Assembly (NCBI GenBank): GCA_012270795.1 | Contig: JAAXHO010000197.1 | Coordinates: 41,813 to 105,812, forward strand | Direction of reading: 5' to 3' | Length of the DNA stretch: 64,000 nt | From: Candidatus Poribacteria bacterium | Lineage (GTDB): Bacteria; Poribacteria; WGA-4E; WGA-3G | Part shown: positions 12,714 to 44,161 of the stretch, in pieces | Numbering within the stretch: the stretch's first letter is position 1 | How the letters are laid out: the number at the start of each line of letters is the position of its first letter | Translations under genes and position numbers: made by a program | The notes under the pieces: model-generated | What the model was told of the DNA's origin: nothing | What the model saw: the letters and a program-made list of their open reading frames with translations, nothing else | Databases searched by the model: none

Positions 12714-12796
12714 TCTCATAAATCGTAGGAGGGGTTTCTAACCCCGATTTACCGGACATGAAACCCGTGAATTTGGACAAAATTACATTTATGAGA
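12714..12796. repeat. MITE-like 83-bp element with 10-bp terminal inverted repeats (TCTCATAAAT...ATTTATGAGA) and a GGAGGGGTTTCTAACCCCGATTT core
   Basis: Near-identical copy at 44078-44161. Confidence 0.8.
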
Positions 12797-12881
12797 TACG
12801 CTGTAAAAAAGAAGTGTAAGTTTTCGGCATGTGTGTTGTCTGAATAATGTCTCGTCGCAGGTTTTTGTTGCTTAATTTGAC

Positions 12882-13115
12882 TTGAAAAATATTAACGAAG
12901 GAGATACAATTATGGAAACGAACATCTTACGTCCTATTCTTGAATTAGTTCTCATTTTGATGTGTGCAACGCTTCTGATCGGTTTTTTCATTATGATTGA
13001 TTCAATACCGACAGGACAATCCCAACCAGACGACTCTATATCGGAAAAACAGGAACCCCCTTACTGTCCAAAATCAAATCTACCACCCCGTTGCCCGCGC
13101 GAGGCAGGAAACTGA
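12882..13115 (+). CDS. Small hypothetical membrane protein
   Basis: 77-aa ORF with one hydrophobic segment and a weak RBS (GAAGGAG). Low confidence. Confidence 0.25.
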   Translation: MKNINEGDTIMETNILRPILELVLILMCATLLIGFFIMIDSIPTGQSQPDDSISEKQEPPYCPKSNLPPRCPREAGN

Positions 13116-13129
13116 AGGAAGAATTTGAG

Positions 13130-13705
13130 ATGTTATTCTTGAGAAAACACACTTATTTGATACTCGGTTTGCTTGTTGGGTTGGTACTATCATTGGTAAT
13201 TCTTACACAACGCAAACAACCGCAGCAGGAAAGGAGGAACCAACACGTGGAACGGAAAAAACCTGCTCAGACTCCACATTCATCGCAAAATCAACGTGGG
13301 AAGACACGCGGAAACGTAGGGCACTCCCATTCACATAGTCACGAACGGAGAGAATGGCAACCTCTTCCACAAGAAGTCAGGAATCAACTTAAAGCGTTAC
13401 GACTTCAGTATAAAGATAAGGTGCTCAGAACAATTACATTTGAATCCAGGGACTTTGGGACATTTGACTATACGATGTATCCAGATGAGTTTAATGAAAA
13501 AGAATTGGAAATCTTATGTGGTGATATGGACCCTGAACAAGCAACTGACTATCTATTGTCAGTTGGTGTCTGTAGTCCTGCACTTCTTAAACGTTTGGAC
13601 TCCGTATCTGCCTTTCAATACTTAAAAGCGTTAGGTCATAGTCCTGAATCACGTGAATATACGGAACGTGTCATTGCAGAAAATCCTGGCACCGATTGCA
13701 CTTGA
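13130..13705 (+). CDS. Membrane-anchored protein, probably the N-terminal part of the following TPR protein (frameshift near 13695)
   Basis: TM anchor MLFLRKHTYLILGLLVGLVL, then a basic/His-rich linker. The 3' end reads ...RVIAENPG, and the overlapping +1 frame continues PIALEAKYYLADAL as in the next ORF. Confidence 0.45.
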   Translation: MLFLRKHTYLILGLLVGLVLSLVILTQRKQPQQERRNQHVERKKPAQTPHSSQNQRGKTRGNVGHSHSHSHERREWQPLPQEVRNQLKALRLQYKDKVLRTITFESRDFGTFDYTMYPDEFNEKELEILCGDMDPEQATDYLLSVGVCSPALLKRLDSVSAFQYLKALGHSPESREYTERVIAENPGTDCT

Positions 13706-14627
13706 AGCCAAGTATTACCTTGCTGACGCTCTGATTCCTTGGAGCAAAGAATCTTATTCTGAAAAAGCACAAGCGTATCGAGAGATACTTGAAATTGAAC
13801 CGAATTCAATAAACGCCTTATTATTATTATTATTAGGGTGTGTTTTGGTAAAAGATGACAAACCTGCTGAAGCAATTCCTTACTTAAAACGGGTAAATCG
13901 GCTGAATCCTGAGGCAGGATTTCTTACGTTAGGGGAGGCTTATGAAAAGTTAGGAGATGTAAAGACTGCATGGACATACTACAAAAAAGCACTATCATAT
14001 CAGTTTCCACCACAGACAAGATTTCTCAAGTTACATATTGAGCGTATTGAAGCGGGTAATCCGATTTATAAGCCAGTGGTATCTGCGCGTGGACCCGTTT
14101 TAATAGATATGCATGTGCATGAACACGGCAAGGAATCTCTTATGCCAAAGGAACATATACATCATACCGAAACGTTACCTGATGATCGTCCCTTATCAGA
14201 ACCTGATTCCATCAACCCATCGAATATCCGTGCTGAAAACAACGAAAAGCGTCGTGCTGCGGCGAAAGCAGCGCAACAAGATTACGATGATTTGCAAAAA
14301 CATCAAGAACGCACACAACAGGAACTTCAAAAGGAACTTAGCGATTTTCGGCAATGGACCGCAACGATTATGAATGCTGACTTTCCCATGAATACTAACA
14401 ACTTCCTCATGAAAGAGATGGAAGCACATCTTAAGGGGGGACAAGCACAGTTTGAACCAGAACGTATTATCCGTGCTTTTGAAACGATGGAACGTTACGG
14501 ACCGGCAGATGGGATCAAACATATCCAAAAAGTCGATCCAGAACTTGCAAGGCAAATACAAGGTCTTCTTTCAGAAAAACGCAATAATCACCAGAACCAA
14601 CCAAACCGGCACATTAACATCAAATAG
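13653..14627 (+). CDS. TPR-repeat protein
   Basis: TPR-like repeats (AQAYREILEIEPNS..., LGEAYEKLGDVKTAWTYYKKAL). It overlaps the previous ORF in another frame and is possibly one gene. Confidence 0.55.
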   Translation: MNIRNVSLQKILAPIALEAKYYLADALIPWSKESYSEKAQAYREILEIEPNSINALLLLLLGCVLVKDDKPAEAIPYLKRVNRLNPEAGFLTLGEAYEKLGDVKTAWTYYKKALSYQFPPQTRFLKLHIERIEAGNPIYKPVVSARGPVLIDMHVHEHGKESLMPKEHIHHTETLPDDRPLSEPDSINPSNIRAENNEKRRAAAKAAQQDYDDLQKHQERTQQELQKELSDFRQWTATIMNADFPMNTNNFLMKEMEAHLKGGQAQFEPERIIRAFETMERYGPADGIKHIQKVDPELARQIQGLLSEKRNNHQNQPNRHINIK

Positions 14628-15072
14628 CGGTTCTACCGCATCCCCAGGAGACACACATACCTTTACTTTTGAATCGAGCGAACCATATCAATCTGTGACT
14701 TGGCAGGTGAACAATCCATCAGATACAAGTGAGTATGGTACGACTGAGGAAATAGATCCTGGAGATGGAACTATGACAACGGCAACGTTTAGTTTTACGT
14801 ACCCGAGTGGTGTTTCTGGCAATTATATAATAACCGCGCGTGCACATCCAAGTTCGGGAAATGTTGTAGTTGAGCGTATGACGATCTCGGTCAGGGCACC
14901 GACACCAACATTGGTGGCGTGTGGTGGTGCGCCTTGGACCGGCTGTACAACCCGTGTGTCATCAAGCACTGCCCATCGCGCTACCTGTCCATCAGGACAT
15001 ACATATTGGACGTGTGGAAGTGCGGTGGATTGGCATACGGCGCAAAAGACACATGTTCTAAATGTGGGATAA
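14452..15072 (+). CDS. Hypothetical Cys-rich, Thr/Ser-rich secreted-type region; it may be a frameshifted C-terminal extension of the TPR gene
   Basis: The ORF overlaps the TPR gene's 3' end in another frame. Its C-terminal part has 6 Cys (VACGGAPWTGCTT...CPSGHTYWTCGS). No clear start codon or RBS. Confidence 0.3.
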   Translation: MNQNVLSVLLKRWNVTDRQMGSNISKKSIQNLQGKYKVFFQKNAIITRTNQTGTLTSNSGSTASPGDTHTFTFESSEPYQSVTWQVNNPSDTSEYGTTEEIDPGDGTMTTATFSFTYPSGVSGNYIITARAHPSSGNVVVERMTISVRAPTPTLVACGGAPWTGCTTRVSSSTAHRATCPSGHTYWTCGSAVDWHTAQKTHVLNVG

Positions 15073-15227
15073 GTTTCTATTGGTGCAATAATGGCAATGG
15101 TGGGTGTTTCCACAGCGGTCGTGAAGATACTTGGCATGCAGAGTAGAGGCATTTTGTAACAAATAACTCGTGAAAGGCAGGTATCTTTTTCCAGTACCTG
15201 TCTATTCTCAATTAGGAGAGATTCATC

Positions 15228-15707
15228 ATGAAAATAAAAACCTTCCTAATGGGTTTGCTGATCCCGTTACTCCTTACTGTACTGGTGCTGATATACATGC
15301 AGATCACACAGAAACCCGCACCTGCAACCGTCTTTCAGCACCAATCTGATGCATTAGAAAACATGAAGTCCTCAGAAATAGACACCGACCTTGTCAATAC
15401 AGGTGCAGAAAGTCTTGATGCATATTATCAGTTCGTTATTGACAACAACATCTTCCGTCCGCTCGGATGGAAACCTACCAAAAAACCACCGAATTATTCC
15501 CTCATCGGTACTGCTGTTTCTGAAAATACAGAAGAATCACAAGCGTTTATTGTGAATCGGCAGACAACCACATGCATACTGTCAAAGTTGGTGACACCAT
15601 CGGAGAAGCGTTAGTAAAAGTCATTGAAGCAAAACGTGTCCTATTGAATGCAGCAGGAAAAGAAATTGTCCTGCATGGTGGAAATATGCAGTTCTTGACG
15701 CGCTTTC
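15228..15707 (+). pseudogene. PilP/GspC-like pilus or secretion assembly protein, frameshifted near 15590
   Basis: N-terminal TM anchor. After the annotated stop, the adjacent frame continues HMHTVKVGDTIGEALVKVIEAKRVLLNAAGKEIVL, matching the conserved C-terminal motif of PilP/GspC-type proteins. Confidence 0.45.
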
Positions 15708-15861
15708 GTTAATGGTAAAACCTTCCATAGATGTATTCAGCATTGATTCACAGGAAACGATACAGCGAAAATAAAGAGATAACTCAGAAATTGAATGTTT
15801 CTGGACAATGCCAAAAAAAGTTTTGACAAAAATATTTTAATCTGATATTATAATTTTTTAA

Positions 15862-16290
15862 GTGTATTGTTACGATTATCCGCGCCCCTCAGTTACTGTT
15901 GATATTGTGCTGCTGTTGGATGTGTCTCAGAATCCGCAGGTTTTATTAATTCGTAGGAAGAATCCGCCTTTCAAAGACTGTTGGGCACTCCCGGGTGGAT
16001 TTTTGGATATGTCCGAAACGCTTGAGGAGAGCGCACGTCGCGAATTGCTTGAGGAAACGGGTATATCAGACGTACAGTTGACGCAGGTAGGCACATTTGG
16101 ACATCCCGACCGTGATCCACGCGGGCGTGTAATAACTATCGCTTTTGTCGGGATTGTGAGTTCTAAACAACAAAAAGCCGTAGCCGGTTCCGATGCCGCA
16201 GCCGTTGCATGGTTTTCAATATCAGATTTACCACAACTCGCCTTTGACCATGAACATATTATTCAAAACACATTAGCAGGATTAAAATGA
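15862..16290 (+). CDS. NUDIX hydrolase
   Basis: Nudix box GGFLDMSETLEESARRELLEETGI. Confidence 0.8.
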   Translation: MYCYDYPRPSVTVDIVLLLDVSQNPQVLLIRRKNPPFKDCWALPGGFLDMSETLEESARRELLEETGISDVQLTQVGTFGHPDRDPRGRVITIAFVGIVSSKQQKAVAGSDAAAVAWFSISDLPQLAFDHEHIIQNTLAGLK

Positions 16291-16619
16291 AACATTACAG
16301 GTTAACATTGAACCTAAAAGACGACCCAGAGTTAATTGAAAAATATAAAGCGTATCACAGGAACGCGTGGCAAGAAACATTGACTGGTCTGAAAGCTGTC
16401 GGTATTACGAAAATGAACATTTACCTTTTAGGCAGGCGTTTATTTATGGCGATGGAGACTGTTGACACATTTGATATAAAACGCGACTTTCCCCGCTATC
16501 TTGAACACCATCCGAAGTGCAAAGAATGGGACGAGTTAATGCGAACTTTTCAGGAACCTGTAGAAGACGCACAAACGGATGAATGGTGGGCATTGATGGA
16601 ACCAGTATTTGAATTATAA
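16287..16619 (+). CDS. L-rhamnose mutarotase-like (RhaM/DUF718 family) protein
   Basis: 110 aa with YKAYHRNAWQE...NIYLLGRRLFMAME...EWW, typical of rhamnose mutarotase. Its start overlaps the NUDIX stop by 4 nt. Confidence 0.7.
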   Translation: MKHYRLTLNLKDDPELIEKYKAYHRNAWQETLTGLKAVGITKMNIYLLGRRLFMAMETVDTFDIKRDFPRYLEHHPKCKEWDELMRTFQEPVEDAQTDEWWALMEPVFEL

Positions 16620-16657
16620 ATCTACAATTGAAACATTCCTGTATGTAATATAAAAAG

Positions 16658-17590
16658 TTGGATCGTATATTGGATAAAACAATGACTATTAGTTACGACT
16701 ACATCGCATTCAGTGGTAGACTTTCAGATAGTAAATGGACTCTTGGAATGAAAGCGATTCAAGGCGAAGTGCCTTTGGACATCGTCTTTCCGAGTTTGCA
16801 GTCCTCCACCGATCCTGATGATCAGGACATTATAGGGGTTTTAACGAAAGAAGGCACATCAAGAGAAAGTACGGATGTGATGGAGCTCTACCGTTATCTT
16901 CGCCAGTTAAACCCGAAATCCAATCAAGCATTTGGTTATAATGAAATCGCGATACGGAATATCCATTCCCGTCTTAACACACTGAAAGTTGATGAAGAAC
17001 TCCGTGTCCAAATCAGTTTTTCCGAGCGTAAAGAGAACTATATCCCATCTTCATATAACATCAAATTATTAGGTATTTTCCCGCTATCTCCTCCCGATAC
17101 ATCTGAACCGGTACCTGATACTCCCGAAGAAACCGAAATAGAGGTTGTTGAACCTGATGAGAATACACAAGATATGGCTGAGACTGAAGATGCCTCTGTT
17201 ATTCCTACAAGTTTCCCACCTACAGATCCAGAGGTGCCTGTCTATAAAACCACAAATACGTTGGAAAAACTTATCGTTTTTACACGTACACTGCAAACTG
17301 AGTTAGATGAGACGAAGCGGACGATTTCATCCATGGCAGAAAAAATTCATTTTTTGGAGAATGACAAAGTTCGCCACCAAGAACTTGAAAGTTTAGTCCA
17401 GTCTATCTATGATCGTCTCAACCATTTAGAGAATTTTGATAGGCGTATTGGTTCGCTTGAAAATGACCGCCTTCAACTCAGTCAATTAAAACAGACCTTA
17501 GCAAAATACTTCAAGACCTCCAATCGGCAAACCCAGGCATTGCTCAACGAGGTTAGTGTTGAAACAGAAGATTTCAACACAGATAGTTAA
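16658..17590 (+). CDS. Hypothetical protein with an acidic Pro-rich linker and a C-terminal coiled coil
   Basis: 310-aa ORF with no recognisable domain. The C-terminal heptad-like region is ELDETKRTISSMAEKIHFLENDK... Confidence 0.5.
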   Translation: MDRILDKTMTISYDYIAFSGRLSDSKWTLGMKAIQGEVPLDIVFPSLQSSTDPDDQDIIGVLTKEGTSRESTDVMELYRYLRQLNPKSNQAFGYNEIAIRNIHSRLNTLKVDEELRVQISFSERKENYIPSSYNIKLLGIFPLSPPDTSEPVPDTPEETEIEVVEPDENTQDMAETEDASVIPTSFPPTDPEVPVYKTTNTLEKLIVFTRTLQTELDETKRTISSMAEKIHFLENDKVRHQELESLVQSIYDRLNHLENFDRRIGSLENDRLQLSQLKQTLAKYFKTSNRQTQALLNEVSVETEDFNTDS

Positions 17591-17637
17591 ACCTTGATTA
17601 AATAAAACAAAAACCCTTTGGAAAGGATTGTCCCTTC

Positions 17638-18439
17638 ATGATGAAAATTGGTACGATGTCCTTGAATGTAAGAGGTACAACTGCAACCCAATTTGCACAG
17701 ATCGTGTATGACCTTGGCTTTGATGTTATTGAACTACATTATAGAGCGTTTGAATCTACTGATGTTAACTATTTGCGTGATTTGAAGAAGGATCTCATGC
17801 GGAAAGGGCTGCCTCTTAGGTTACATCGGTATCAGTAATAACTTCGGCAAACCTGTGGCAGAACATCCTGAACAGGTTGCCCTTACCAAAAAATGGATTG
17901 ACGTTGCTGCTTTTATGAGTTGTCCCATTGTCCGTGTTTTTGCAGCGAAGGTGCCTGCGGATTGTCAAGATGAGGAAACATTGTGGCAGCCGATGATTGA
18001 AGGTTTCAAGGAGGTCGCTGAATACGGTTATGAATCAGGTATTCTTGTCGGTCTGCAAAACCACAATCACGATAATATCACACGCGATGGCGATGCAGTT
18101 TTGCGCGCCTTGAATGAAACCGACCACCCCTATTTTACACACATTTTAGATACAGGACAATACGCTGGTTCACCCGGTGCAAGTGGCCAACAAAACGTAT
18201 CACATCCCGATTACGACTGCTACGCAAGTATTGAAAAGACTGCCCCTTATGCTGTATATGTTAGAACAAAGTTTTATGAGATTGATAGCGGGGTAGAAAA
18301 ATGGTTAGACTATCCAAGGGTTTTGGATATTTTGCGTGGCGTTGGTTACAATGGTTGCCTATCTGTGGTCTATGAAGGGAAATCCGACCCGATTGAATCC
18401 ATGCGTAAAGCGAGAAGTTATCTGGAAGCCTTACTGTAG
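17638..18439 (+). pseudogene. Sugar phosphate isomerase/epimerase (xylose-isomerase-like TIM barrel), frameshifted at ~17815
   Basis: ORF 17638-17838 ends ...KGLPLRLHRYQ*. Shifting one base gives GLPLGYIGISNNFGKPVAEHPEQVALTKKW, which is continuous with ORF 17855-18439. One extra base explains the split (ctctt[a]ggttac). Confidence 0.65.
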
Positions 18440-18568
18440 AAACAGCATAACGAAAACACCGTAGTGAATAATTATCATAATATATTGACACTTGCGCCAC
18501 ACGGTAAGTAGGTATCCTGACCTCACCGATGCTACGTGTCCAAATAATTCCAAATTCTACAATAAACC

Positions 18569-19345
18569 ATGAAATCTGTACACACATCTGTCCGCGATCA
18601 ATTTAGCCAACATGCGGATTATTATGCCCAGAGCAGCGTGCATGCAAAAGGACAAACCCTTCAAGTTATCCTTGACTTTGCAGCCCCAAAAGGCACGGAG
18701 AAGACTTTAGATATTGCCACAGGGACAGGTTTTACAGCGTTTGCACTCGCCCCCAAAGTTTCCGATGTCGTTGCCACAGACCTTACACCAGAGATGGTCG
18801 CGAAAGCATCTGAGTTAGCACGTGAACAAGGGCTAAATAACATCACATTTTCTGTTGCTGCTGCAGAGGCCTTACCGTTTTCAACTTCCTCGTTTGATTT
18901 AGTTACCTGCCGTCTGGCACCTCACCACTTTCAAGATGTCCCTGAGTTTTTAAGGGAGGTGTATCGTGTTTTACGCACAGATGGTAGTTTTTGTCTTGTA
19001 GATTCGGTCTCTCCAGAATCGGAGAAGTTAATTGCGTGGCAAAATCGTGTAGAAAAACTACGCGATGATTCGCATGTATTTGGGTATCCTCCCTCACAGT
19101 GGGATAAAATGATTGTGGATGCTGGATTTGAGATTGATGAGTCAGCACACACTCGGAATGCCCAGATGTCGTTTTTGTGGTGGGTGCGTCCACATAAGAA
19201 TCCACCGGAAGTGGTGCAGGAAATCCGAGATGCGTTCTCGGAGCTCTTACCTGATGACGCGAAAAAACATTATACAGTTGAACACAAGGGTAATGACTTC
19301 TATTTTTCTTGGCCGATGTATGCTGTCAAAGCAAAACGGTGTTAG
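18569..19345 (+). CDS. Class I SAM-dependent methyltransferase (Methyltransf_11-like)
   Basis: Motif I LDIATGTGFTAFALA, acidic motif II VVATDLTPEM, and motif IV region FDLVTC. Confidence 0.8.
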   Translation: MKSVHTSVRDQFSQHADYYAQSSVHAKGQTLQVILDFAAPKGTEKTLDIATGTGFTAFALAPKVSDVVATDLTPEMVAKASELAREQGLNNITFSVAAAEALPFSTSSFDLVTCRLAPHHFQDVPEFLREVYRVLRTDGSFCLVDSVSPESEKLIAWQNRVEKLRDDSHVFGYPPSQWDKMIVDAGFEIDESAHTRNAQMSFLWWVRPHKNPPEVVQEIRDAFSELLPDDAKKHYTVEHKGNDFYFSWPMYAVKAKRC

Positions 19346-19348
19346 GAG

Positions 19349-19392
19349 CGCGATGAATAACACCAAAATGTTATTCATCGCGCATTTTATTA
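19349..19392. terminator. Bidirectional Rho-independent terminator between convergent genes
   Basis: Stem gcgcgatgaataaca / tgttattcatcgcgc with loop ccaaaa, followed by ATTTTATT. Confidence 0.6.
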
Positions 19393-19403
19393 TGCAACGA
19401 ACC

Positions 19404-22364: not shown

Positions 22365-22462
22365 TATAGTATCTCCTTTATGTGATTATGCGGTTTAGCA
22401 TTTATGACATTAGGTAGCATTTGATGAATTATGGTGAATTATTGAAATAATTATACACCCTT

Positions 22463-22508
22463 CTGTAGGATCGATCTCCTGGTCGTGACAAGGAGATCGA
22501 TCCTACAA
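22463..22508. repeat. Palindromic repeat (GTAGGAtCGAtC variant of the 7268 family)
   Basis: ctgtaggatcgatctcctggtcgtgacaaggagatcgatcctacaa. Confidence 0.7.
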
Positions 22509-22694
22509 CTCAGTCAGTATGTTTGAAACACATAAATTAAGCGTTAGTATCACAAATTATGCAAAAAATGTCAAATATATTTTGATATTGTGTTTTCGTT
22601 GTCTGAATCATGATTTTCAGGATTTTTCAGAGCGGTAACATGTTCTAATTATTATTTCACTATATTAACCTAAGTTGCTACCTACTTTAGAATA

Positions 22695-22797
22695 CTCTTG
22701 TTGGAGGGGTTTCTAACCCCGATTTATGACAAAACGCATCAAAATTCGTTGTTTTTATGTTTTCTGTTATCAATCGGGGTTAGAAACCCCGATTTTC
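22695..22797. repeat. Inverted-repeat element with GGAGGGGTTTCTAACCCCGATTT core
   Basis: cttgttggaggggtttctaaccccgattt ... caatcggggttagaaaccccgatttt. Related elements lie at 26366-26438 and 33731-33808. Confidence 0.75.
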
Positions 22798-22805
22798 CCT
22801 ATCTT

Positions 22806-22848
22806 CTGTAGGAGCGACCTTTGGTCGCGACCAGAGGTCGCTCCTACC
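22806..22848. repeat. Palindromic repeat (GTAGGAGCGACC family)
   Basis: ctgtaggagcgacctttggtcgcgaccagaggtcgctcctacc. Confidence 0.75.
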
Positions 22849-22994
22849 TTAAGAAACCTATGTTAGATTATACGCTATATCGACAATTGAATGCCTCTGC
22901 CTCCATATCCGATTTTAGTTGCAATTCCTGTTCAGATGTGGTAAAATAATATGTGAATATACTCTGAACGCCTTGCTTGTAGGAGGAGAGGCGA

Positions 22995-23507
22995 GTGGAA
23001 GTCACCGTTCTGGTACTAAATGCAAGTTACGAAGCAATCAATGTTTGCAACCTTAGACGTGCCTTGAAGATGGTGTTCAAAGGCACTGCTCAGACAGAGG
23101 AAGTGTCTGATACGGAGATACAGTCACCATCAACTGCGGTCAAAGTTCCGCACGTGATCCGTTTGGTAAACTACGTTCATGTACCGCGTAGTGTTGTCAA
23201 GTTCTCACGTAAGAATGTCTTAGCGCGCGACAACCATACTTGTCAGTACTGTCATCGTGAACTCTCTGCATCCCTACTCACACTTGACCATGTTGTTCCC
23301 ATCTCAAAGGGAGGGAAAACGACATGGGATAATGTGGTAACCGCATGCAAACGATGCAATAACAAAAAGGGCAGTAGGATGCTTGATGAGACGCAGTTTA
23401 AGTTGAAACGTGTACCGAAAACGCCTTCAATTCTGACGTATTTGCAACTCAACCGTCATTTTAGAGGTTACCATCCGTCTTGGAAAAAATATCTTTATAT
23501 AAACTGA
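22995..23507 (+). CDS. HNH endonuclease family protein
   Basis: HNH motif CQYCHRELSASLLTLDHVVPISKGGKTTWDNVVTACKRCNNKKG. Confidence 0.8.
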   Translation: MEVTVLVLNASYEAINVCNLRRALKMVFKGTAQTEEVSDTEIQSPSTAVKVPHVIRLVNYVHVPRSVVKFSRKNVLARDNHTCQYCHRELSASLLTLDHVVPISKGGKTTWDNVVTACKRCNNKKGSRMLDETQFKLKRVPKTPSILTYLQLNRHFRGYHPSWKKYLYIN

Positions 23508-26280: not shown

Positions 26281-26340
26281 GTTAAATACTGTCCTACTAT
26301 CATTTTTTCATTTACAAACATAATTCTTTCTAACAGACAA

Positions 26341-26478
26341 AGGAGCAGAGTCATTCAATTGTCACAAAGCATCATTGTTGGAGGGGTTTCTAACCCCGAT
26401 TTCTGCTGTTGTGTATCTCAAATCGGGGTTAGAAACCCCTCCAACAACAATGAAACCCGACAATTGGATGCCTCTGCA
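26341..26478. repeat. Nested MITE-like element: 19-bp terminal inverted repeats (GCAGAGtCATTCAATTGTC...GACAATTGgATGCCTCTGC) enclosing a 27-bp-armed hairpin with GGGGTTTCTAACCCC core
   Basis: The inner inverted repeat 26366-26438 is perfect (ttgttggaggggtttctaaccccgattt / aaatcggggttagaaacccctccaacaa). The outer inverted repeat recurs at 54552-54760. The element overlaps the annotated 5' end of jag. Confidence 0.75.
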
Positions 26479-27121
26479 AAAGGAGGGATGCCTCTTGCAA
26501 AACTATATTGAATCTGAAGCAGAAACTGTTGAAGAAGCAATCGAAATTGCTCTCACCGAACTTGATACAACCCGAGAACAAGTCAACATCATCATTATAA
26601 ATGAACCGACAAAAGGCATCCTGAGTTTTGGCGCGAAACCCGCAAAAGTACGCGCCACGTTAAAGGAAGATATAACAAATGCACCTGAAACTGTCCTGAA
26701 AGAAATACTCAAGCGAATCGGAATTGATGGTGAGATTGAATCCGACTTTAGTGATGGTAGTTTATACCTCAATATGGTTACCGACTCCCCAGCCCTTCTA
26801 ATCGGAAAACATGGGCAAACACTTGATGCTATTGAACGGATCCTCAATTGTATCATCAATAAAAATGCACTCGCTAAAAGAAAGGTTTTTGTTGATACTG
26901 AAGGTTACCGTGAACGCCGAGAGAATATGCTCGTTGACCTCGCTCATCAGGTAGCAGCAAAGGTTAGACGAACTAAGCAGGATGCTGTCCTTTCACCTAT
27001 GTCTGCTAAGGACCGCCGCATCATTCATATTACTTTACAACCGGACGATTCCGTTTCAACCTTCAGTCAAGGAGAAGGCGATATGCGCCGCGTTGTTGTT
27101 ACCAGACAAGACGATTATTGA
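26450..27121 (+). CDS. jag: Jag/KhpB-like RNA-binding protein (KH + R3H domains)
   Basis: C-terminal R3H (DRRIIHITLQPDDSVSTFSQGEGDMRRVVV) with a KH-like segment upstream. The N-terminus of the annotated ORF is encoded by the repeat element, so the true start is probably MKPDNW or MPLQKEG. Confidence 0.75.
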   Translation: MKPDNWMPLQKEGCLLQNYIESEAETVEEAIEIALTELDTTREQVNIIIINEPTKGILSFGAKPAKVRATLKEDITNAPETVLKEILKRIGIDGEIESDFSDGSLYLNMVTDSPALLIGKHGQTLDAIERILNCIINKNALAKRKVFVDTEGYRERRENMLVDLAHQVAAKVRRTKQDAVLSPMSAKDRRIIHITLQPDDSVSTFSQGEGDMRRVVVTRQDDY

Positions 27122-32298: not shown

Positions 32299-32362
32299 CT
32301 CTAACTCCTTTGTAGTAGTAAAATTATACGGATTGATAATAAACCTTGTATGTTTACATAAG

Positions 32363-32454
32363 ATGCACAAACTGGAAGTTTATGCTACATAAGGCGCACA
32401 ATCTAACAGATCATGCTACATAAGATGCACAAACTGAAAGTTTATGCTACATAA
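32363..32454. promoter_or_regulatory. Two copies of a conserved palindromic upstream element (CACAAACTGRAAGTTTRTGCTACATAAG), 65-155 nt upstream of the LamG gene
   Basis: atgcacaaactggaagtttatgctacataag at 32363-32393, again at 32424-32454, and a partial third copy between them. The same element lies ~85-90 nt upstream of the minus-strand genes starting at 46461 and 54346. Confidence 0.5.
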
Positions 32455-32517
32455 GTTCTGTAGTTGATTTTCCATATTAGAATTTTGAAATCTCAATTTC
32501 TTTCGCAGTAATAAACT

Positions 32518-33627: not shown

Positions 33628-33730
33628 TATAGCATTTTTATTGGCTTATGTCAACGTATAGATTTGTGGGGGTGTGTAAAGATAAAAACCTTGCCATAGG
33701 TGTCAATTTAGGAGCTACTCTACCCTATTT

Positions 33731-33808
33731 CCCTCTTGTTGGCGGGGTTTCTACCCCGATAGCAGAGGGGAATGGCATAAAATCGGGGTTAGAAACCCCT
33801 CCAACAAG
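33731..33808. repeat. Inverted-repeat element of the GGGGTTTCTAACCCC family (degenerate left arm)
   Basis: cctcttgttggcggggtttctaccccgat...aaaatcggggttagaaacccctccaacaagag. Confidence 0.7.
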
Positions 33809-33886
33809 AGTTTCATTTCTTAAATTGATACCTATGGTAAAGATAAAAACCTTGCAGGTTGGAAAATTCATTGCTATAATATACAC

Positions 33887-34958: not shown

Positions 34959-36033
34959 TTATTTCTCGTCGCGTTGCAACTGCTTGATAACCGAGTCAGC
35001 AAAGTCACGATCCCAAAAGCGTGCAATGCTTTCTTTCACGATGGAGATTTCTTCTTGTGATGCTTTTGAGGATAACATCTTACGAACCGTTGAAACGACT
35101 TCGTTTTGCATGCGTTTTTGACGTGATTGTAACCACGCTTTTGACGCATCATCGGGGAAGTATTTATCAAATTCCTCTTGAGACAGCATCGGAACAAATA
35201 CCGTTTCAGGATATTCTTCATAAGTTTTTAGCCATAAGTCTGTCACTTGAGATACTAATAAAGAAGGTTCTTTTTGAACGGGAGACGTGGTTTGTTGTGG
35301 AGCAATAGGGGCTGCCTCCTGTTGCGGGGGAGTAATATCCTGCGATGTATCGGATTCCCGTTTATCCTCGTCTTTAGGGATATAAATAGGATTTCCCGCA
35401 TCGTCCTTTTCAAATCCTATCGGTTTGCCGTTTTCATCATATATCAGAATCGCACCTTTTGCTTCTTCTTCATAGAGACGCGCGGTGGCTTTGTTACGCA
35501 CCCTCTCTATAAAGTTGTTAAATCTTTCATCCATCCTTTTGACCTTCGCTTCATATTGTTGATGTTGTGCGCGCAACTCATCTATGCTCATTAAATCAGC
35601 TTTCGCTATCTCTTCTCTAACGCGCCGTTGCACCTCTGGAGGAAGCGAATTCAAATGATCCTCCATTGCATCAAGTTTTTCTTCAGCAGATAATTTACCA
35701 AATTCTTCTAAATGTTTTTCTAAATTCTTATCAAAATCAGCAATGTGTTTCATACGTTGAGCGTTTATTTTTCGGAATGCCGCAGTTTCTTTATCACTTT
35801 TCGCCTTAATTTCTTCCCAAATACGTTTCTCGCGTGCAGGTCTATCTGCTTCCCAGGCACGTATGTGTTGTTGCCATTCTTCAAATGTCCATTCTTCTAT
35901 CGGTTTCATGGGGCTCTTCGGAACATTCACTGAGACTTGCTTGCTATCACGATAATTTGTAATCAACAGACCTGCAGCAAGGATGCAGATCAATACAGAT
36001 ACGATTATCGCTATTTTGACACCTTTTTTCATG
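34959..36033 (-). CDS. Hypothetical membrane-anchored coiled-coil protein
   Basis: The start is reassigned to MKKGVKIAIIVSVLICILAAGL (signal anchor, AGGAG RBS 8 nt upstream). The body is highly charged and helical with no recognisable domain. Confidence 0.55.
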
Positions 36034-36397
36034 ATCAGTTCTCCTCTAAAATATTGGATACAGCAGGAAGTAAAACCCTGCTGTAAACGTTTGTCGGCTT
36101 CAAGATCTGCTTTATCCTCGTCAAGCGCACTAATATTTTTTAATATTGACTCAACGATTTGATTGGCATCCATTGCATCTGTTAAATCTTCCCACCATGT
36201 TTCCACCCCATCTCTATTCCATTTGCCACGCTTCTTCGCATCAACTTCATCTGGAATACCATTGATTTCTACACAACACTAAGGAATATCTGGAGAAAAT
36301 AAAAAATGTGTGTAAAGCATTCCTTTATGCACTAATTCTAAAACATCCTGATGTTTTACTCAATATGACTTCTTTCATCAAACATCAGTAACAATTG

Positions 36398-37897: not shown

Positions 37898-38027
37898 TAA
37901 CTTACGTCTATTGTAATTCCGGTCCTATATCCTTGACACAACGAAACCCAAAATCATATTAAGTATACATAGATTAAGTCAAAATCTCAAGGAAATTTTA
38001 GATATCAGACAAATTTTTTGAAAAAAG

Positions 38028-38062
38028 TTTGACACTCATAAAAATTTGTGATATAATACTTC
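38028..38062 (+). promoter_or_regulatory. Near-consensus sigma70 promoter (TTGACA-17 nt-TATAAT)
   Basis: ttgacactcataaaaatttgtgatataat. The nearest downstream plus-strand gene begins ~400 nt away at 38470. Only tiny ORFs (17 and 31 codons) lie in between. Confidence 0.5.
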
Positions 38063-38469
38063 AAGGAATGATGTAGATTGATAATGAAATCTGCGTCACC
38101 GTTTTTATACTGTTTTTCATACTTGGGGAGAAGATGAAATTGCTAACCAAAAAGAAACACACCCGTTATTTATCTGATCCAGAATTTTGTAAGTGCAATA
38201 CAGTCGCTCATTTTATTAACTATAGGTTAGTCCATACCCCCCCCGTTTGTTAATATTTCTAATTTGCTTTTACAGAAATTCGTGTTTGCAATATTTTCGT
38301 ACCCGCACTTTTCGTCGCGGGTTATTGTTGTTGCATTGAATAACATTCATCAATTACCCTACAAGATTTGATGCTGATATTGTGATGCAAGTTACTTCTT
38401 ATTCAATCCACTTATTATGGTCAGGATTGAAGACATGTTTAATTAGCATATTGATATAAGGATAAACAA

Positions 38470-39237
38470 ATGTATTGGGATGTTTTAGTTGATAAGTGGT
38501 TCATCCGGATTTTGATTTTTTGCATAATTTGTTCCATTGGAATTTTACTCTGGCAACAAAATGATATGGCAAAATTCAATAAAAAGATGGAAGCACATGA
38601 CGCATTCATTGCAAAATTAGAAAATGAAAAAAATGATACTAAGCAAATAACAGATCGAACTATCACAACTGGAGAAATAGAACATGACGAATGGAATGAA
38701 AATGAAGAATCAACATTCGTCAATGTGGATGTTGAAAAAGTACCCGACTTTGCGACAAAAATGATACAAGACGATGATACAACAGATACATCTTCGTTTA
38801 AAGTATCGACCCCTCAGGTAAGTGTTTCTCCTTACGGGTTTGGTCCCTATCCTGAGATCCCAGAGGACTATCCCGGATACCCATTTAACAATATGTCTGC
38901 AAACCATGAACTAATTGCACGTGTTAAAATAAAGTTGTGGAAACAAGGTATACGGAGTAGTGGTGGCATAATAAGAAACGGATTGGTCTATCCCATTATT
39001 CCTGGGAAGGTATATGTTGAATGGAAGGAGTTTACAAAACCAGATGGTACGGTGGTCAAAACCCCAACTCGAATTCTTGGGGACCCTGACGATTTACCAC
39101 GTAGTAACGAAAGTCTACTAGAAGAGGTAATACGGGAAATGAAAGGGATACCAAAAGTGATAGATCTTCCTTCTCACTTAGAAATTTTAAGCTTTGATGA
39201 GGGGATTGACCCGTATGACTTTTTAGATTTACAATAA
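38470..39237 (+). CDS. Hypothetical membrane-anchored protein of the 'GFGPYPEIPE' family (paralog of 6547-7014)
   Basis: An N-terminal TM anchor, then SPYGFGPYPEIPEDYPGY, YPIIPGKVYVEWKE and GIDPYDFLDL blocks shared with the 6547-7014 product. Confidence 0.6.
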   Translation: MYWDVLVDKWFIRILIFCIICSIGILLWQQNDMAKFNKKMEAHDAFIAKLENEKNDTKQITDRTITTGEIEHDEWNENEESTFVNVDVEKVPDFATKMIQDDDTTDTSSFKVSTPQVSVSPYGFGPYPEIPEDYPGYPFNNMSANHELIARVKIKLWKQGIRSSGGIIRNGLVYPIIPGKVYVEWKEFTKPDGTVVKTPTRILGDPDDLPRSNESLLEEVIREMKGIPKVIDLPSHLEILSFDEGIDPYDFLDLQ

Positions 39238-39250
39238 AGGAGATATTCAA

Positions 39251-40147
39251 ATGAAAAAATTAACCATTTTTCTAAATATTGCCCTAATCTTTGGTTTTAC
39301 CACAGTTGTATTTTCACTACGAGGACCAGAAAATAATCGGGCAAGCAACCGAGACACACATTCAAAAGCGACATTATTTTTTGCTGATCAAAATGGAAAT
39401 CTGGTTGTTGATCAACAAGGAAACACTATACCGTTTGCTGTCCATTATAATGGTGAGGATAGCGATCAGGTTTTATACTCTGGAAGTACAGTTATATCGC
39501 TTATGAATTTCAATGCCCCGAACTTTCATATTAATCTGGGTGTTATTTTAAAAGCAAGAAGCCAAGTTACTTGTACTACTCGAAACATTAACTGCGAAGG
39601 TAGGTTCGCTACCCAGGCAGGACTTTATCATAGTTGGGTAGACGATGACGATCAAGAAGAGTGGGAAAAAGGGGTAGATTACAATGGTCGTGTTGGGGAG
39701 AATGTAACTGAGGATAATAATGATGAAAATGATGGTTTGGCCTTGGCTAAGGTTGATACTAACAATGTAAAGTTTGATCTGTCAGCAGTAGAGAGTTGTG
39801 ATGCTCACAGTTGGATCTATGGTTGGGAACCTTTTCCTTTACCGGGAGCCGTGATAGCTTCCAATGATCCTCCTTCACCTTCTAATCCTAATGAAGGAAC
39901 CGTTTCTGGCAGTTGTGCTTCTGGCAGTTGTGCTTCTGGGGGAGGCAATATTGCAAACGCAGGAGATGAGCCAAACGGAAACAATGTCCAAAACATTGCC
40001 CAAAATGTCCAAAATGTCAATGAACCATCTCATGCTGCTCGATCATATGCCCCTATTAATAGAGAAAAAAATAAACCTGATGTTGATCTTAACCTGCCGA
40101 TTACTCCAGCTTTGCTGGATATTGTTTTTGAATCTCTTGCTGAATAA
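39251..40147 (+). CDS. Secreted hypothetical protein with low-complexity GSCASGSCASGGG and Asn/Asp-rich regions
   Basis: Signal peptide MKKLTIFLNIALIFGFTTVVFS. No recognisable domain. Confidence 0.5.
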   Translation: MKKLTIFLNIALIFGFTTVVFSLRGPENNRASNRDTHSKATLFFADQNGNLVVDQQGNTIPFAVHYNGEDSDQVLYSGSTVISLMNFNAPNFHINLGVILKARSQVTCTTRNINCEGRFATQAGLYHSWVDDDDQEEWEKGVDYNGRVGENVTEDNNDENDGLALAKVDTNNVKFDLSAVESCDAHSWIYGWEPFPLPGAVIASNDPPSPSNPNEGTVSGSCASGSCASGGGNIANAGDEPNGNNVQNIAQNVQNVNEPSHAARSYAPINREKNKPDVDLNLPITPALLDIVFESLAE

Positions 40148-40381
40148 AGTTGGTTATACCAACTCTAAGATATTATGGTTCATTCTTGAGGGAGAATTTG
40201 TAGGAGCGACTTTGAATCAACACCAAATGCGCTTTTGGTAATTGGCAGTTCGGGACTAAGAAGGTTGTACATACAGTGGTGTCTTCCAATTATATTCGAC
40301 ACAACAAAATTTCAGTAATGGAATTTTGTTTTTTAGAATTGGTATTTCTACAACATTGCTTAAGATTGTGTATAAACCCTA

Positions 40382-41371
40382 ATGAAAAAGAGTTTTACTA
40401 TATATCTTACCATTGGTGCCCTCTTTTACTGCATCATACTACTGACTTTCTGGATACGGATTCAGGGTGTACATAGACTACCCGCAGGGCAGTTTACTGA
40501 AAACGATGCCTATCTTTATCACTGGCACGCAAACATTATAGCGAAACACGGCGTGTTGCCTGCAAAGGATATGCACCGTTGGTTACCTAATGGAAGAGAT
40601 AACGGGTTACTTCTTTCGCTCTATTCCTACGCTATCGCTTACATACATAAAGCGGTGGCGTGGGCATTTCCAAAACTCACAATTAATCACATCCAACTTT
40701 ACCTCCCCGTATTCTGTTTTACCTTAGGACTTGGTGTGCTGTTTGTCTTTCTCACTCGCGTTCACGGACTGCTCTTTGCAACTGTCGTAGGTGTGCTATT
40801 GGCAACGCTACCCGGCAGCATTGAACGCAGTGCTGCAGGTTTTGGCGACAGAGACGCATGGTGCTGGATGTTCGGCATACTTGCTGTTATCAGTTACCTA
40901 TGGAAAGAGGTTATGCAGCCAGGTCGACGCAGGTTTGTTGCAACAATCCTTTCTGGATTCATCGTTTTTTTGGGTGGACTTTCCTGGGAAGCATTCGGAC
41001 TCTTTGTGCTGATAATACTCTGTATTGAGATATGGAAATTCTGTACCAACGAAACTGAACAGCACTTAAAAGAGTATCTAATATGGATACTCATGTTTGT
41101 TCCATTGCTCTACCTTTTAGCTCCCGCTTATCGTCGCGGTTACAGTTACTGGACGCACCTCGCTGTCTTAGTGCTCTTGCCACCCCTTGTGGTTTTCACA
41201 ATACGCGGAGCAAGGTATCTACTGCTTACTTATGTTGAGTTTCTGCAACCACATGCTCGAAAACTTGCATGGGGACTTACACTCGGTGCCATTGTATTAG
41301 GTATCGGTTATTTTTTTCCCAATCCAGCACGTTTGAAACAACCGTCTTCGCGCTTAAAGAGAGTCGACTGA
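40382..41371 (+). CDS. STT3/AglB/PglB-like oligosaccharyltransferase, N-terminal membrane half
   Basis: TM1 is followed by ENDAYLYHWHANII...LPAKDMHRWLPNGRD, which resembles the first external-loop motif of STT3/AglB. A DxD-like GFGDRD follows, with ~8 TM segments. The stop overlaps the next start (TGATG). Confidence 0.5.
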   Translation: MKKSFTIYLTIGALFYCIILLTFWIRIQGVHRLPAGQFTENDAYLYHWHANIIAKHGVLPAKDMHRWLPNGRDNGLLLSLYSYAIAYIHKAVAWAFPKLTINHIQLYLPVFCFTLGLGVLFVFLTRVHGLLFATVVGVLLATLPGSIERSAAGFGDRDAWCWMFGILAVISYLWKEVMQPGRRRFVATILSGFIVFLGGLSWEAFGLFVLIILCIEIWKFCTNETEQHLKEYLIWILMFVPLLYLLAPAYRRGYSYWTHLAVLVLLPPLVVFTIRGARYLLLTYVEFLQPHARKLAWGLTLGAIVLGIGYFFPNPARLKQPSSRLKRVD

Positions 41372-42774
41372 TGAAAGACATGACAGAACTCGTTGATCCA
41401 CATTATGGATATTGGACAGGGAGATATGGAACTGTTTTTATCTTAGGTAGCTTCGGTTTGATAATCACAAGTCTCCATCTTTGGAAACGGAATGGATTAC
41501 CTCTTGCTCTCGCGCTTTCTTTATTTTCCGCAACAACCTTTTTCCGATGGCAAATCAGCGGATGGATAGGAGAAAATACGTGCAACACGCTGTTTTTGAT
41601 TTCATTCGGATTCGCCGTTGGCTGTTTTGCCATTGCATCATTCCGAAAAGATACAGAGAAAAGTGAATTGGTAACGCTTGCTATACTTGCTTGGTTTCTC
41701 TTATGGGTAGCACTCTCGCGGGGAGGAAAACGCTATGACTTTTTTATTGGTCTTCCACTTGCTTACGGCACTGCATGGATCCTCTCTGTTTCACCTGGCT
41801 ACATCTTACAAAAACTTAAAAATGCAAAAATTCTGTATCCCCATGTTAACGAACAATGGGTTACGATTTGCTTTGCAATTATTGTGTTAATTCCAGTTTT
41901 CTTTTGGAATCCTCTCGGTGGTCATGCAAATCGGGCAATTGCAGCTGCAGCAACCTGGCGCAACCCTACCCCTGGTGAAGGAACACCACTTAGCAAAACT
42001 TATGAATGGATGAAAAATACACTACCGCAAGACACTGTGGTCGCTGCAAACTGGAGTTACGGAAGCCAACTTAATGTTTTCGGAGGAGTCAAAACTATTA
42101 CAGATCAGGACACTTTCCTCCCACATTGGATTCATCTCTATTATAGACACGTCTACTGCGCGCAATCTGAGCGCGAAGCATTAGAATTTCTTAAAACTCA
42201 CGGTGTAACACACCTCATGCTCAGAGAATGGGGAATAGTAAATCGTGCATATACCTATTCTTATATCGGCAGTGATGAAAAAGGCGATAAGAGATTCGGG
42301 TTCACACCTCTTGTTAAGGACAGGAACAAACAGCTCACAAGTCCAAAAAATATTCGATTTCGTTTTCAATATATAAGTACAGTGGGAATAGAGGTTAAAA
42401 ACCCGCCTGATCCCTACTTAAATGCGCGTCTAAAAACAGGAGCTGTCGCACGACTTCCTTATGTAATGTTCAAAGGTACTAAACGCCATGTTCCTCAATT
42501 ACCTAGCTATAGAAACCCACACGGTGGTGTAATTCTCTATTACGATCAAAATGGAACTTTGGAAAAAGCATATCATATTTCCAGTCGTGGTTGGAAATGT
42601 CTTGCTGTGCAGCTCTATTTTCTCGGTGAGATGTCTGATACGTTTGTTCCTGTCTACCCCGAAGAAGAAAATAATACAACCTCTGTCAAAGTTTGGAAAA
42701 TTAACTATCCATCTGATATAGAAGCAAATCCTAAATATCTTGTGACAGAACCCGAAACCTCTCATGAAAAATGA
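41371..42774 (+). CDS. STT3/AglB/PglB-like oligosaccharyltransferase, C-terminal half (TM segments + periplasmic domain) with divergent motifs
   Basis: About 6 TM segments, then a soluble domain. SVSP lies in a loop (compare SVSE/TIxE), and ANWSYGSQL lies where WWDYG is expected. The gene is translationally coupled to the previous ORF. Confidence 0.5.
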   Translation: MKDMTELVDPHYGYWTGRYGTVFILGSFGLIITSLHLWKRNGLPLALALSLFSATTFFRWQISGWIGENTCNTLFLISFGFAVGCFAIASFRKDTEKSELVTLAILAWFLLWVALSRGGKRYDFFIGLPLAYGTAWILSVSPGYILQKLKNAKILYPHVNEQWVTICFAIIVLIPVFFWNPLGGHANRAIAAAATWRNPTPGEGTPLSKTYEWMKNTLPQDTVVAANWSYGSQLNVFGGVKTITDQDTFLPHWIHLYYRHVYCAQSEREALEFLKTHGVTHLMLREWGIVNRAYTYSYIGSDEKGDKRFGFTPLVKDRNKQLTSPKNIRFRFQYISTVGIEVKNPPDPYLNARLKTGAVARLPYVMFKGTKRHVPQLPSYRNPHGGVILYYDQNGTLEKAYHISSRGWKCLAVQLYFLGEMSDTFVPVYPEEENNTTSVKVWKINYPSDIEANPKYLVTEPETSHEK

Positions 42775-43525
42775 AACCATTGAAGTCTCTATCGTCATGC
42801 CGTGTCTCAACGAAGAAGAAACACTTGGCATATGTATTGAAAAGGCACAATCCACCCTCAAATCTTTAGGGTATTCAGGTGAAGTTGTCATCGCTGATAA
42901 CGGTTCCATTGATAACTCCGTTGAAATTGCCAAACGTCTCGGTGCACGCGTTGTGCATCAACAGACACGAGGTTACGGTGCAGCTTATCTTGCTGGTTTT
43001 GCTGCTGCACAGGGGCAATACATCATCATGGGAGACTCCGATGATACATACGACTTCACAGATTTAGAACGATTCATAACACCCCTTCAAAATGGATATA
43101 ACCTCGTTATCGGCAATCGGTTTAAAGGTAAGATTTTACCGGGTGCTATGCCGTGGGCAAGACGTTATATCGGCAACCCAATACTTTCTGGAATGCTGCG
43201 CTTGTTATTTGGTACATATATATCAGATTCACACTGCGGGATGCGATCATTTACTACCGATGCATACAAACGGATGGACTTAAAAACAACAGGCATGGAA
43301 TTCGCCTCTGAAATGGTTATCAAAGCAGTCCAGTCTGAGTTGAAAATACTTGAAATTCCAATCACCTATCACCCCCGTGGCGGCGAGTCAAAACTTAATG
43401 CGATTCGGGACGCATGGCGACATATCCTGTTTATGATAAAATATAAACTCTCCAACCAGACAACACATGATAAAAAATCAGCAACTTCCACAGATCCCAA
43501 AAAAAACAATGGATCGCTTCCTTGA
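42764..43525 (+). CDS. Family 2 glycosyltransferase (polyprenyl-phosphate sugar synthase, DPM1/GtrB-like)
   Basis: VSIVMPCLNEE...ADNGSIDNS...GDSDDTY (DxD) and the overall GT2 pattern are present. Its start overlaps the previous stop. Confidence 0.8.
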   Translation: MKNETIEVSIVMPCLNEEETLGICIEKAQSTLKSLGYSGEVVIADNGSIDNSVEIAKRLGARVVHQQTRGYGAAYLAGFAAAQGQYIIMGDSDDTYDFTDLERFITPLQNGYNLVIGNRFKGKILPGAMPWARRYIGNPILSGMLRLLFGTYISDSHCGMRSFTTDAYKRMDLKTTGMEFASEMVIKAVQSELKILEIPITYHPRGGESKLNAIRDAWRHILFMIKYKLSNQTTHDKKSATSTDPKKNNGSLP

Positions 43526-44045
43526 ATACCTACGGTTTACCAAAGCGAAAAAACACATTCCAAAAGGAGCATATCTCTTAGATGTTGGGACAGGAGATGG
43601 ATCGTTTTTACGTTTTCTCAACGGACACATTTTATCAGGGGTTGGTATAGACCCACTTATCACAACTACCATACATTCTAAGGATTGGACGCTTCAACCA
43701 GGCACTTTCCCTCAGGATTTTCACACTGAAGGACGTTTTGATGTCATAACTCTCCTCGCTGTCGTTGAACATATTCCCGATGACGAACTGCATCAGGTAG
43801 TGGACACCTGCTGGAATCACTTAAAACCTGGGGGACGCGTTATTATCACCGTACCCCATCCGTTTGTAGATAAGATCTTAGATGTTTTGAAGTTTTTGAA
43901 AATTATTAAGGGACTTTCTCTTGAGGAACATCACGGATTCAATCCTGAAGTCTTGCCAGATGTCTTTTGTCGGTGGAAATTGATTAAAAAAGAACGTTGG
44001 GAACTCGGATGTAATTACTTATTCATATTTGAAACAGATCTTTAA
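43509..44045 (+). CDS. Class I SAM-dependent methyltransferase
   Basis: Motif I LDVGTGDGSF, motif II region VGIDPL, and VITLLAVVEHIPDDEL. Start chosen at MDRFLEY. Confidence 0.65.
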   Translation: MDRFLEYLRFTKAKKHIPKGAYLLDVGTGDGSFLRFLNGHILSGVGIDPLITTTIHSKDWTLQPGTFPQDFHTEGRFDVITLLAVVEHIPDDELHQVVDTCWNHLKPGGRVIITVPHPFVDKILDVLKFLKIIKGLSLEEHHGFNPEVLPDVFCRWKLIKKERWELGCNYLFIFETDL

Positions 44046-44077
44046 TTTTGACTATAGTTGGATAGTTTTTTTACCTA

Positions 44078-44161
44078 TCTCATAAATGGTAGGAGGGGTT
44101 TGTAACCCCGATTTACCAGACACGCGACACGGTGAATTCGGACAAAATCGTATTTATGAGA
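44078..44161. repeat. MITE-like element, second copy of the 12714-12796 family
   Basis: tctcataaatggtaggaggggtttgtaaccccgatttacc...atttatgaga. Confidence 0.8.

Follow-up and report, generated by a model that had tools for sequence, protein, structure and literature searches.

A 64,000-nt stretch of DNA from Candidatus Poribacteria bacterium (assembly GCA_012270795.1, contig JAAXHO010000197.1, positions 41,813 to 105,812; hereafter the window) contains dispersed copies of a 15-nt hairpin, GGGGTTTCTAACCCC. An earlier reading of the letters alone (the sequence-only reading) described the hairpin as the core of nested miniature inverted-repeat transposable elements (MITEs); our analysis ties it instead to a transposase whose genes it flanks. 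The core is very probably the repetitive extragenic palindrome (REP) of a Poribacteria REP/REPIN-RAYT system, that is, one in which REPs and their inverted doublets (REPINs) are associated with a REP-associated tyrosine transposase (RAYT), and three MITE families carry this REP as well. The REPs form a sequence population across Candidatus Poribacteria; such elements are known, but we found none described for this phylum. The features that define such systems are drawn from published work (PMC5581495, PMC3733652, PMC3116915). A literature search of incomplete coverage returned no paper that pairs Poribacteria with RAYT, REPIN or REP, and the core sequence is absent from the full text of the papers searched.

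With at most one mismatch allowed, the window contains seven matches to the core, and none is expected from 100 shuffles; an eighth copy, degenerate and with a 1-nt deletion, lies at 33744-33757. The repeated core seen by the sequence-only reading is real, but its ‘about ten’ positions come down to eight copies at five loci. All five REP-bearing sites are intergenic. A 126-kb scaffold from a sponge-associated metagenome (ENA ERZ23495086) encodes the YidC protein of the window.

12731, 22706, 26383 and 44095 (forward) and 22776, 26425 and 33785 (reverse): copies of GGGGTTTCTAACCCC with at most one mismatch
26375-26447, no strand: REPIN, two inverted REP units TTGTTGGAGGGGTTTCTAACCCCGATTT with their heads outward
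33733-33811, no strand: REPIN, left unit degenerate (GGCGGGGTTTCTA-CCCCGAT), right unit intact
33695-33836, no strand: palindromic element of 142 bp around the 33.7-kb REPIN, outer arms CATAGGTGTCAATTTAGG / CTTAAATTGATACCTATG

The full unit is ~28 nt long, TTGT[A/G/T]GGA-GGGGTT-NNN-AACCCC-GATTT; each unit has a head, a hairpin with a 6-bp stem and a 3-nt loop, and a tail. Among 213 copies (from the listed Poribacteria loci and the window), conservation is limited to TTGTNGGA, the hairpin and GATT(T), and many solitary copies have unrelated flanks. The head is GT-N-GGA, invariant except for its third base (~53 GTAG, ~93 GTGG and ~48 GTTG by 8-mer counts); in the window, both copies in the type a MITEs described below have GTAG and the remaining copies have GTTG. 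The stem is preserved as a stem. When 57 distinct units are gathered by head and tail alone, with the stem free to vary, 88% of the stem cells are paired, compared with 74% in shuffled sets, none of 500 of which attains 88%, and 32-53% with slid partners; changes on both sides of the stem occur in 31 cells (7.2 expected) and include the compensatory variants GGGCTT/AAGCCC, GTGGTT/AACCAC, GAGGTT/AACCTC and GCGCTT/AAGCGC.

The unit is extragenic by preference: only 32 of the 213 copies (15%) lie deep in open reading frames (ORFs) of ≥200 aa, and such ORFs make up 76% of the sequence examined. Divergent, tandem and convergent intergenic contexts are occupied alike. Scanning one genome per species with the 19-mer GGGGTTTNTAACCCCGATT finds the unit in at least 105 loci among the matches listed; all but two of these are titled Candidatus or uncultured Poribacteria, and the two are titled ‘uncultured bacterium’. 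The repeats are therefore not single-copy outside the window, as the sequence-only reading had anticipated.

The copies also pair. We count ~26 inverted doublets, and the distance between cores is exactly 27 nt for 32 of the 52 paired copies. The REPIN at 26375-26447 has this dominant spacing, with 27 nt between its 15-nt hairpin cores and a 17-nt spacer between its GATTT/AAATC tails; its two arms complement each other exactly, and the single-stranded DNA fold of 26372-26448 has -32.6 kcal/mol (z = -11.4). The corresponding values for 33731-33811 are -27 kcal/mol and z = -7.8. The ‘long-armed inverted repeats’ that the sequence-only reading treated as an element type (its type b) are such REPIN doublets; the one that it placed at 33731-33808 exists but lies within the longer palindromic element at 33695-33836. 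The outer-arm motif of that element, AAGTTGACACCTAT, adjoins REPs at 67 sites from 29 sources and also occurs upstream of bacA in a relative (L196); the spacer upstream of bacA is a repeat hot spot with a content that differs from genome to genome. Direct repeats of 19 bp, GTAAAGATAAAAACCTTGC, bracket the element (33676-33694 and 33837-33855). These repeats exceed the usual length of a target-site duplication, and a related motif, GTGTAAAGTTTTTGGCAT, turns up beside REPs of other genomes.

REPs are also found in direct tandem arrays, at L065 4180-5320 (44- and 68-nt periods) and L032 4590-4785 (40 nt). We considered and rejected a clustered regularly interspaced short palindromic repeat (CRISPR) array, given these periods of 40, 44 and 68 nt and an inter-unit sequence that is repeated rather than unique; a terminator reading was rejected on hairpin strength, and Rfam and tRNA scans of the window gave no matches.

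As separate observations, some REPs within apparent coding regions are all read in one frame (..VGGVSNPDS..), at L017 ~3029 and L075 ~913 and also in L041, L047, L105 and L080; two species have a short-chain dehydrogenase in which the REP corresponds to a 5-residue insertion (VSNPD) relative to paralogues.

RAYT genes flanked by the REP

One of the loci that came up through the repeat itself, L032, contains an ORF (4091-4564) that surfaced when the Y1 transposase of the window, to which it is weakly related, was used as a probe. This ORF scores 124 bits on the RAYT profile NF047646 of NCBIfam (REP-associated tyrosine transposase; cutoff 80 bits) and also matches Pfam Y1_Tnp. A REP doublet lies 23 bp upstream of the gene, and four tandem REPs with an inverted partner lie 25 bp downstream. 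Because L032 had been found through the repeat, we fetched homologues by protein identity alone; the RAYT genes of L106 (82% identical), L193 (73%), L107 (71%) and L194 and L195 (both 69%) are all flanked on both sides by the main REP or by its compensatory GGGCTT/AAGCCC variant. In total, six RAYT loci are flanked on both sides by the main REP, L032 included. More distant RAYTs, in L108 (60% identical) and L109 (55%), are flanked by different GTAGG-headed REPs; that of L109 is related to the second REP family of the window (see below).

In 16 homologues, neither the HUH motif MPDHxH nor the tyrosine motif Y..NPVRKG varies. Most homologue clusters are found on one contig, and gene neighborhoods are common to L106 and L193 and, separately, to L107, L194 and L195. 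Searching the sequences of solved structures with the RAYT gives only weak matches, to IS200/ISDra2 TnpA. Clustering the ORFs beside the repeat in the 105 loci yields only common Poribacteria paralogue families and no transposase.

These properties are those of the REP/REPIN-RAYT systems of E. coli and Pseudomonas (groups 2 and 3): a short palindrome whose unpaired 5′ head is conserved (here except at its third base), long hairpins formed by inverted doublets, many extragenic copies, a HUH/Y1 transposase gene flanked by the same units, a REP type that co-varies with the RAYT, and RAYTs in conserved neighborhoods. The Poribacteria system differs in its host, in a head that is GT[A/G/T]GGA and not strictly GTAG, in the 6-bp stem, in the direct tandem arrays with periods of 40, 44 and 68 nt, and in a REP that is fixed inside three MITE families that make target-site duplications. 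By analogy, the RAYT, typically a single-copy chromosomal tyrosine (HUH/Y1) enzyme, would recognize the folded single-stranded REP hairpin and cut at its head, dispersing single units and REPINs without target-site duplication; alternative processing would yield the multi-unit arrays. On the same analogy, the RAYT probably moves the REP in Poribacteria.

Some annotated RAYTs (P0007, P0018) end in REP-encoded C-terminal tails (..SGLKTPPT..). The probe itself is the sole Y1 transposase in the window:

1857-2336, minus strand: Y1 transposase gene, NCBIfam IS200, 69.5 bits

We rejected it as the mobilizer of the REP: the model that it matches is IS200, not RAYT, and the palindrome that flanks it, CCGCTCCAGCGGAGCGG, differs from the REP. 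Doublets of CCGCTCCAGCGGAGCGG and GATGTTTATAG flank this gene at 1751-1828, 2405-2490, 2599-2669 and 2763-2848, and 90-bp direct repeats (1621-1710 = 2848-2937, 97%), copies of the 5′ end of the nitroreductase gene, enclose the whole block (1621-2937). A homologue of the Y1 transposase in L045 (68% identical) has a different hairpin and keeps the ATGTTTATAG tail.

MITE carriers of the REP and the insertion at jag

Three unrelated MITEs, distinguished by their target-site duplications, have the REP as a fixed part of their interior: type a (TA), type c (9 bp) and type d (~3 bp). Their copies and ends in the window are as follows.

12705-12805, plus strand: type a MITE, TA|CAACCTATCTCATAAAT...ATTTATGAGATACGCTG|TA, 97 bp plus TA flanks
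~44069-44170, plus strand: second type a MITE, left outer end degenerate
22666-22797, plus strand: type d MITE derivative, left end TAACCTAAGTTGCTAC (22666-22681)
26346-26476, plus strand: type c MITE of 131 bp between yidC and jag, ends CAGAG(T/G)CATTCAATTGTC; carries the REPIN
26337-26345, no strand: left 9-bp target-site duplication, ACAAAGGAG
26477-26485, no strand: right 9-bp target-site duplication, CAAAAGGAG; provides the jag Shine-Dalgarno site
54552-54755, plus strand: type c MITE of 204 bp with a different interior; no REP and no recognizable target-site duplication
22882-22900, minus strand: lone type c end GCAGAGGCATTCAATTGTC, without a partner
26345 and 54551 (forward) and 22882, 26459 and 54738 (reverse): matches to the type c end GCAGAGGCATTCAATTGTC

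The first type a copy contains one REP at 12723-12750 (head GTAGGA) and the second contains one at 44087-44114 (GTAGGAGGGGTTTGTAACCCCGATTT). The inverted ends TCTCATAAAT described by the sequence-only reading are present at both sites, 12714-12796 and 44078-44161, but the elements are wider, since 18-20-nt inverted ends, CAAC(C/G)TATCTCATAAAT, and the flanking TA extend them to the bounds given above. The layout TA|CAACCTATCTCATAAAT...GCTG|TA recurs in most of the complete copies compared; in L029 (~970-1270), type a copies form a tandem array with a 101-nt period in which neighboring units share a single TA. Judged from the TA flanks alone, type a is probably IS630/mariner-like. Over their first 59 nt (12709-12767 vs 44073-44131), the two window copies share 88% identity.

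Type d is defined from 11 full copies in other genomes (ends TAACCYAAGTTGCYAC, ~160 bp, ~3-bp duplication). In the window element, a REP occupies 22698-22725 and a second one, inverted and without a head, occupies 22771-22795; 22694-22797 folds as single-stranded DNA with -25.7 kcal/mol (z = -7.5). By alignment with the full copies, the element is a truncated, palindromized copy of type d. The repeat seen earlier at 22695-22797 is present, but the element to which it belongs begins at 22666, and its terminal repeat there is of a fourth kind.

Type c (CAGAGNCATTCAATTGTC) has ends of 18-19 nt, no ORF and multiple copies. Five matches to its end occur in the window at ≤3 mismatches, where 0.02 are expected, so that the 19-bp ends, the second copy near 54552 and the lone end near 22882 reported by the sequence-only reading are all recovered; the element that it placed at 26341-26478 is real, with corrected bounds of 26346-26476 and the 9-bp duplications outside them. 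Duplications of 9 bp also surround copies in L027, L070 and L061. Type c is found in 16 genome-derived sources (window included) and in many sponge-metagenome contigs; copies in another species (L090) are 88% identical to the element at 26346-26476.

This element is polymorphic. Three relatives, with Jag proteins of 94-96% identity, lack it in the yidC-jag spacer, which reads ...GACAAAAGGAGGGGTGCCACTTG, with the target sequence, GACAAAAGGAG, present once; in the window the spacer reads ...ACAAAGGAG[131-bp element]CAAAAGGAGGGATGCCTCTTG. From the comparison of the empty and filled spacers, the insertion duplicated the Shine-Dalgarno site and left jag whole: the insertion point is 10 bp upstream of the start codon TTG 26495, from which jag encodes 208 aa. 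The Jag homologues of Poribacteria agree, most of those listed being 207-208 aa and aligning from TTG 26495 (the closest four are 208, 208, 208 and 210 aa). The source assembly calls a 223-aa protein from ATG 26450, inside the type c element; from these alignments the call is an artefact with a 15-residue false N-terminus (26450-26494). The sequence-only reading was therefore right that the annotated N-terminus is repeat-encoded, but the element did not enter the coding sequence, which begins downstream. The MITEs are presumably mobilized in trans by DDE transposases, which would give the REP a second, hitch-hiking route; one such move put the type c MITE and its REPIN at the jag ribosome-binding site with jag intact.

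Within type c, 13 REP-bearing copies from many species were compared, and in every one of them the REP head starts at a distance of exactly 11 nt from the left end. Beyond that point the interior varies, with one REP, a REPIN or a REP of the other family (and none in the window copy at 54552-54755). Since the offset is constant across species, the nesting looks inherited rather than recent; the pattern fits an inherited composite with a remodeled interior, not repeated recent insertions. The sequence-only reading had taken elements within elements as a sign of ongoing activity. That sign is weak: given the constant type c offset and window type a copies that are only 88% alike, we see one lineage-specific insertion, that at jag, and no strong sign of current bursts.

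An autonomous partner with matching ends, which the sequence-only reading had suggested looking for, did not turn up in 105 genome loci (type a, b, c and d ends) or 79 metagenome loci (type c end), a limited and biased sampling; for type c the geometry sought was a pair of inverted ends 0.7-4 kb apart that enclose a transposase. Three candidate long end pairs were rejected because they enclose a sulfatase, a tetratricopeptide repeat (TPR) protein and unrelated genes, not transposases. The carriers otherwise resemble bacterial MITEs (IS630-like families with TA; families with 9 bp): they have terminal inverted repeats and target-site duplications, measure 80-200 bp, lack coding capacity and show an insertion polymorphism among close relatives. 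They differ in that the interior is dominated by the REP or REPIN of another transposition system and in that no parent insertion sequence was found in the loci sampled.

Weighing the alternatives

Several observations weigh against a REP/REPIN-RAYT system. The GTAG head occurs only in a minority of copies, GTGG and GTTG being commoner; the free hairpin is short (6 bp); and the direct tandem arrays of L065 and L032 depart from the classical alternating arrangement. For a bare REPIN there is no clean empty site, as judged from the 33.7-kb REPIN and the bacA relatives. L032 is not an independent sample, having been found through the repeat, but the other five RAYT loci are. Finally, no RAYT of the L032 clade lies within the window, so the link for this genome is via homology of the REP; on that homology, the source genome probably carries a RAYT of this clade elsewhere.

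The sequence-only reading, in which the hairpin is the common core of a nesting, currently active MITE family moved by a DDE transposase that matches GCAGAGGCATTCAATTGTC or TCTCATAAAT, has in its favor that duplications and one empty site mark the carriers as true MITEs and that an internal motif, ATGAAACCCGnnAATTnGGA, is common to types a and c. We nevertheless consider it unlikely: the core also occurs free of carrier ends, as solitary copies with unrelated flanks, as doublets and in arrays; three carrier families with different ends and duplication lengths share it; and it flanks RAYT genes. The constant offset within type c (13 of 13), the 88% identity of the window type a copies over their first 59 nt, and the lack of an autonomous element with these ends in the 105 genome and 79 metagenome loci count against it as well. 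A host signal, that is, a bidirectional terminator, an mRNA-stabilizing stem or a protein-binding site that is kept by selection and spread by recombination, with RAYT neighbors that are incidental, would explain the intergenic location, the GATTT(T) after the hairpin and the compensatory change in the stem, and such roles are ascribed to REPs (PMC3733652). This reading is quite improbable, however, for a stem of only 6 bp and a T-run interrupted by GA, for copies placed alike in divergent, tandem and convergent contexts, and for a REP type that changes with the RAYT clade; moreover, five independent RAYT loci are flanked on both sides, even though the window has only ~1 copy per 8 kb. A host role is, in any case, compatible with RAYT-driven spread.

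The remaining alternative is a tiny mobile repeat that spreads by a mechanism needing no transposase, like the small dispersed repeats of Nostoc. Those of Nostoc punctiforme are reportedly 21-27 nt long and lie within mini-transposons and ORFs, so that, by this description, both are units of <30 nt that are embedded in MITEs or mini-transposons, with occasional copies in genes (in frame in Poribacteria). The host, however, is of another phylum and not a cyanobacterium, and a dedicated RAYT flanked by the unit exists in Poribacteria; we regard this alternative as very improbable indeed.

A REP/REPIN-RAYT system with MITE carriers therefore remains our preferred explanation, and its most distinctive point, an unusual one, is the fixed REP module within unrelated MITEs. 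A parallel is offered by the bacterial interspersed mosaic elements (BIMEs) and the composites of REP and unrelated stem-loops of Pseudomonas (PMC3733652), which are likewise mosaics with short conserved motifs in intergenic hot spots; the difference is that several of the Poribacteria partner motifs are MITE ends with target-site duplications. A more ambitious version, which we consider possible rather than probable, is that the system is ancient, phylum-wide and co-diversifying with its hosts and that no fewer than three unrelated MITE families of the DDE type have taken up its REP as a fixed part of their interior. If so, REPs would spread by two independent chemistries (HUH single-strand and DDE cut-and-paste), and a non-autonomous element that hitch-hikes on other such elements would then be documented.

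Most work on REPIN-RAYT systems has been done in Proteobacteria, where they are model cases of sequence populations that persist for long in a genome. A well-populated system in the Poribacteria, an uncultivated phylum of sponge symbionts, widens that range; the fixed presence of one REP in three MITE families that are unrelated may be a route of REP spread, the copies offer natural markers for symbiont strain typing, and a class of annotation errors is explained, among them the false Jag N-terminus and the REP-encoded RAYT tails.

Other repeats in the window

A second REP family, with the GTAGGAG head as in the main family, is present as REPINs.

22808-22847, no strand: REPIN of the second family, GTAGGAGCGACC...GGTCGCTCCTAC
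7269-7310, ~22465-22506 and ~40200: further second-family REPIN copies
32355-32455, 46541-46606 and 54423-54488: 31-nt units bearing CACAAACTGNAAGTTTNTGC and related copies

Synteny breaks off upstream of the conserved HNH-rnpA-yidC-jag-mnmE block, in a region (22365-22995) that is also a hot spot for repeats; at this hot spot L111 (806-1168), L112 (743-1222) and L113 (572-1072) each have a different GTAG-headed REPIN.

The 31-nt units form three tandem copies with a small palindrome, CACAAACTGNAAGTTTNTGC, and two dispersed related copies lie upstream of other genes. At 46734-46901, the two arms of a perfect inverted repeat of 41 nt, CAAATCAACGGTATGAATGCCTTTTGGCATTCCCCGGGATT, are separated by 86 nt, and a related motif occurs in a type c MITE of L014. 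Most of the direct-repeat families returned by the repeat finder come from three large minus-strand ORFs with WD40-like repeats (47037-54346); in the other Poribacteria loci, too, ORFs with WD40 repeats make up one of the largest paralogue clusters.

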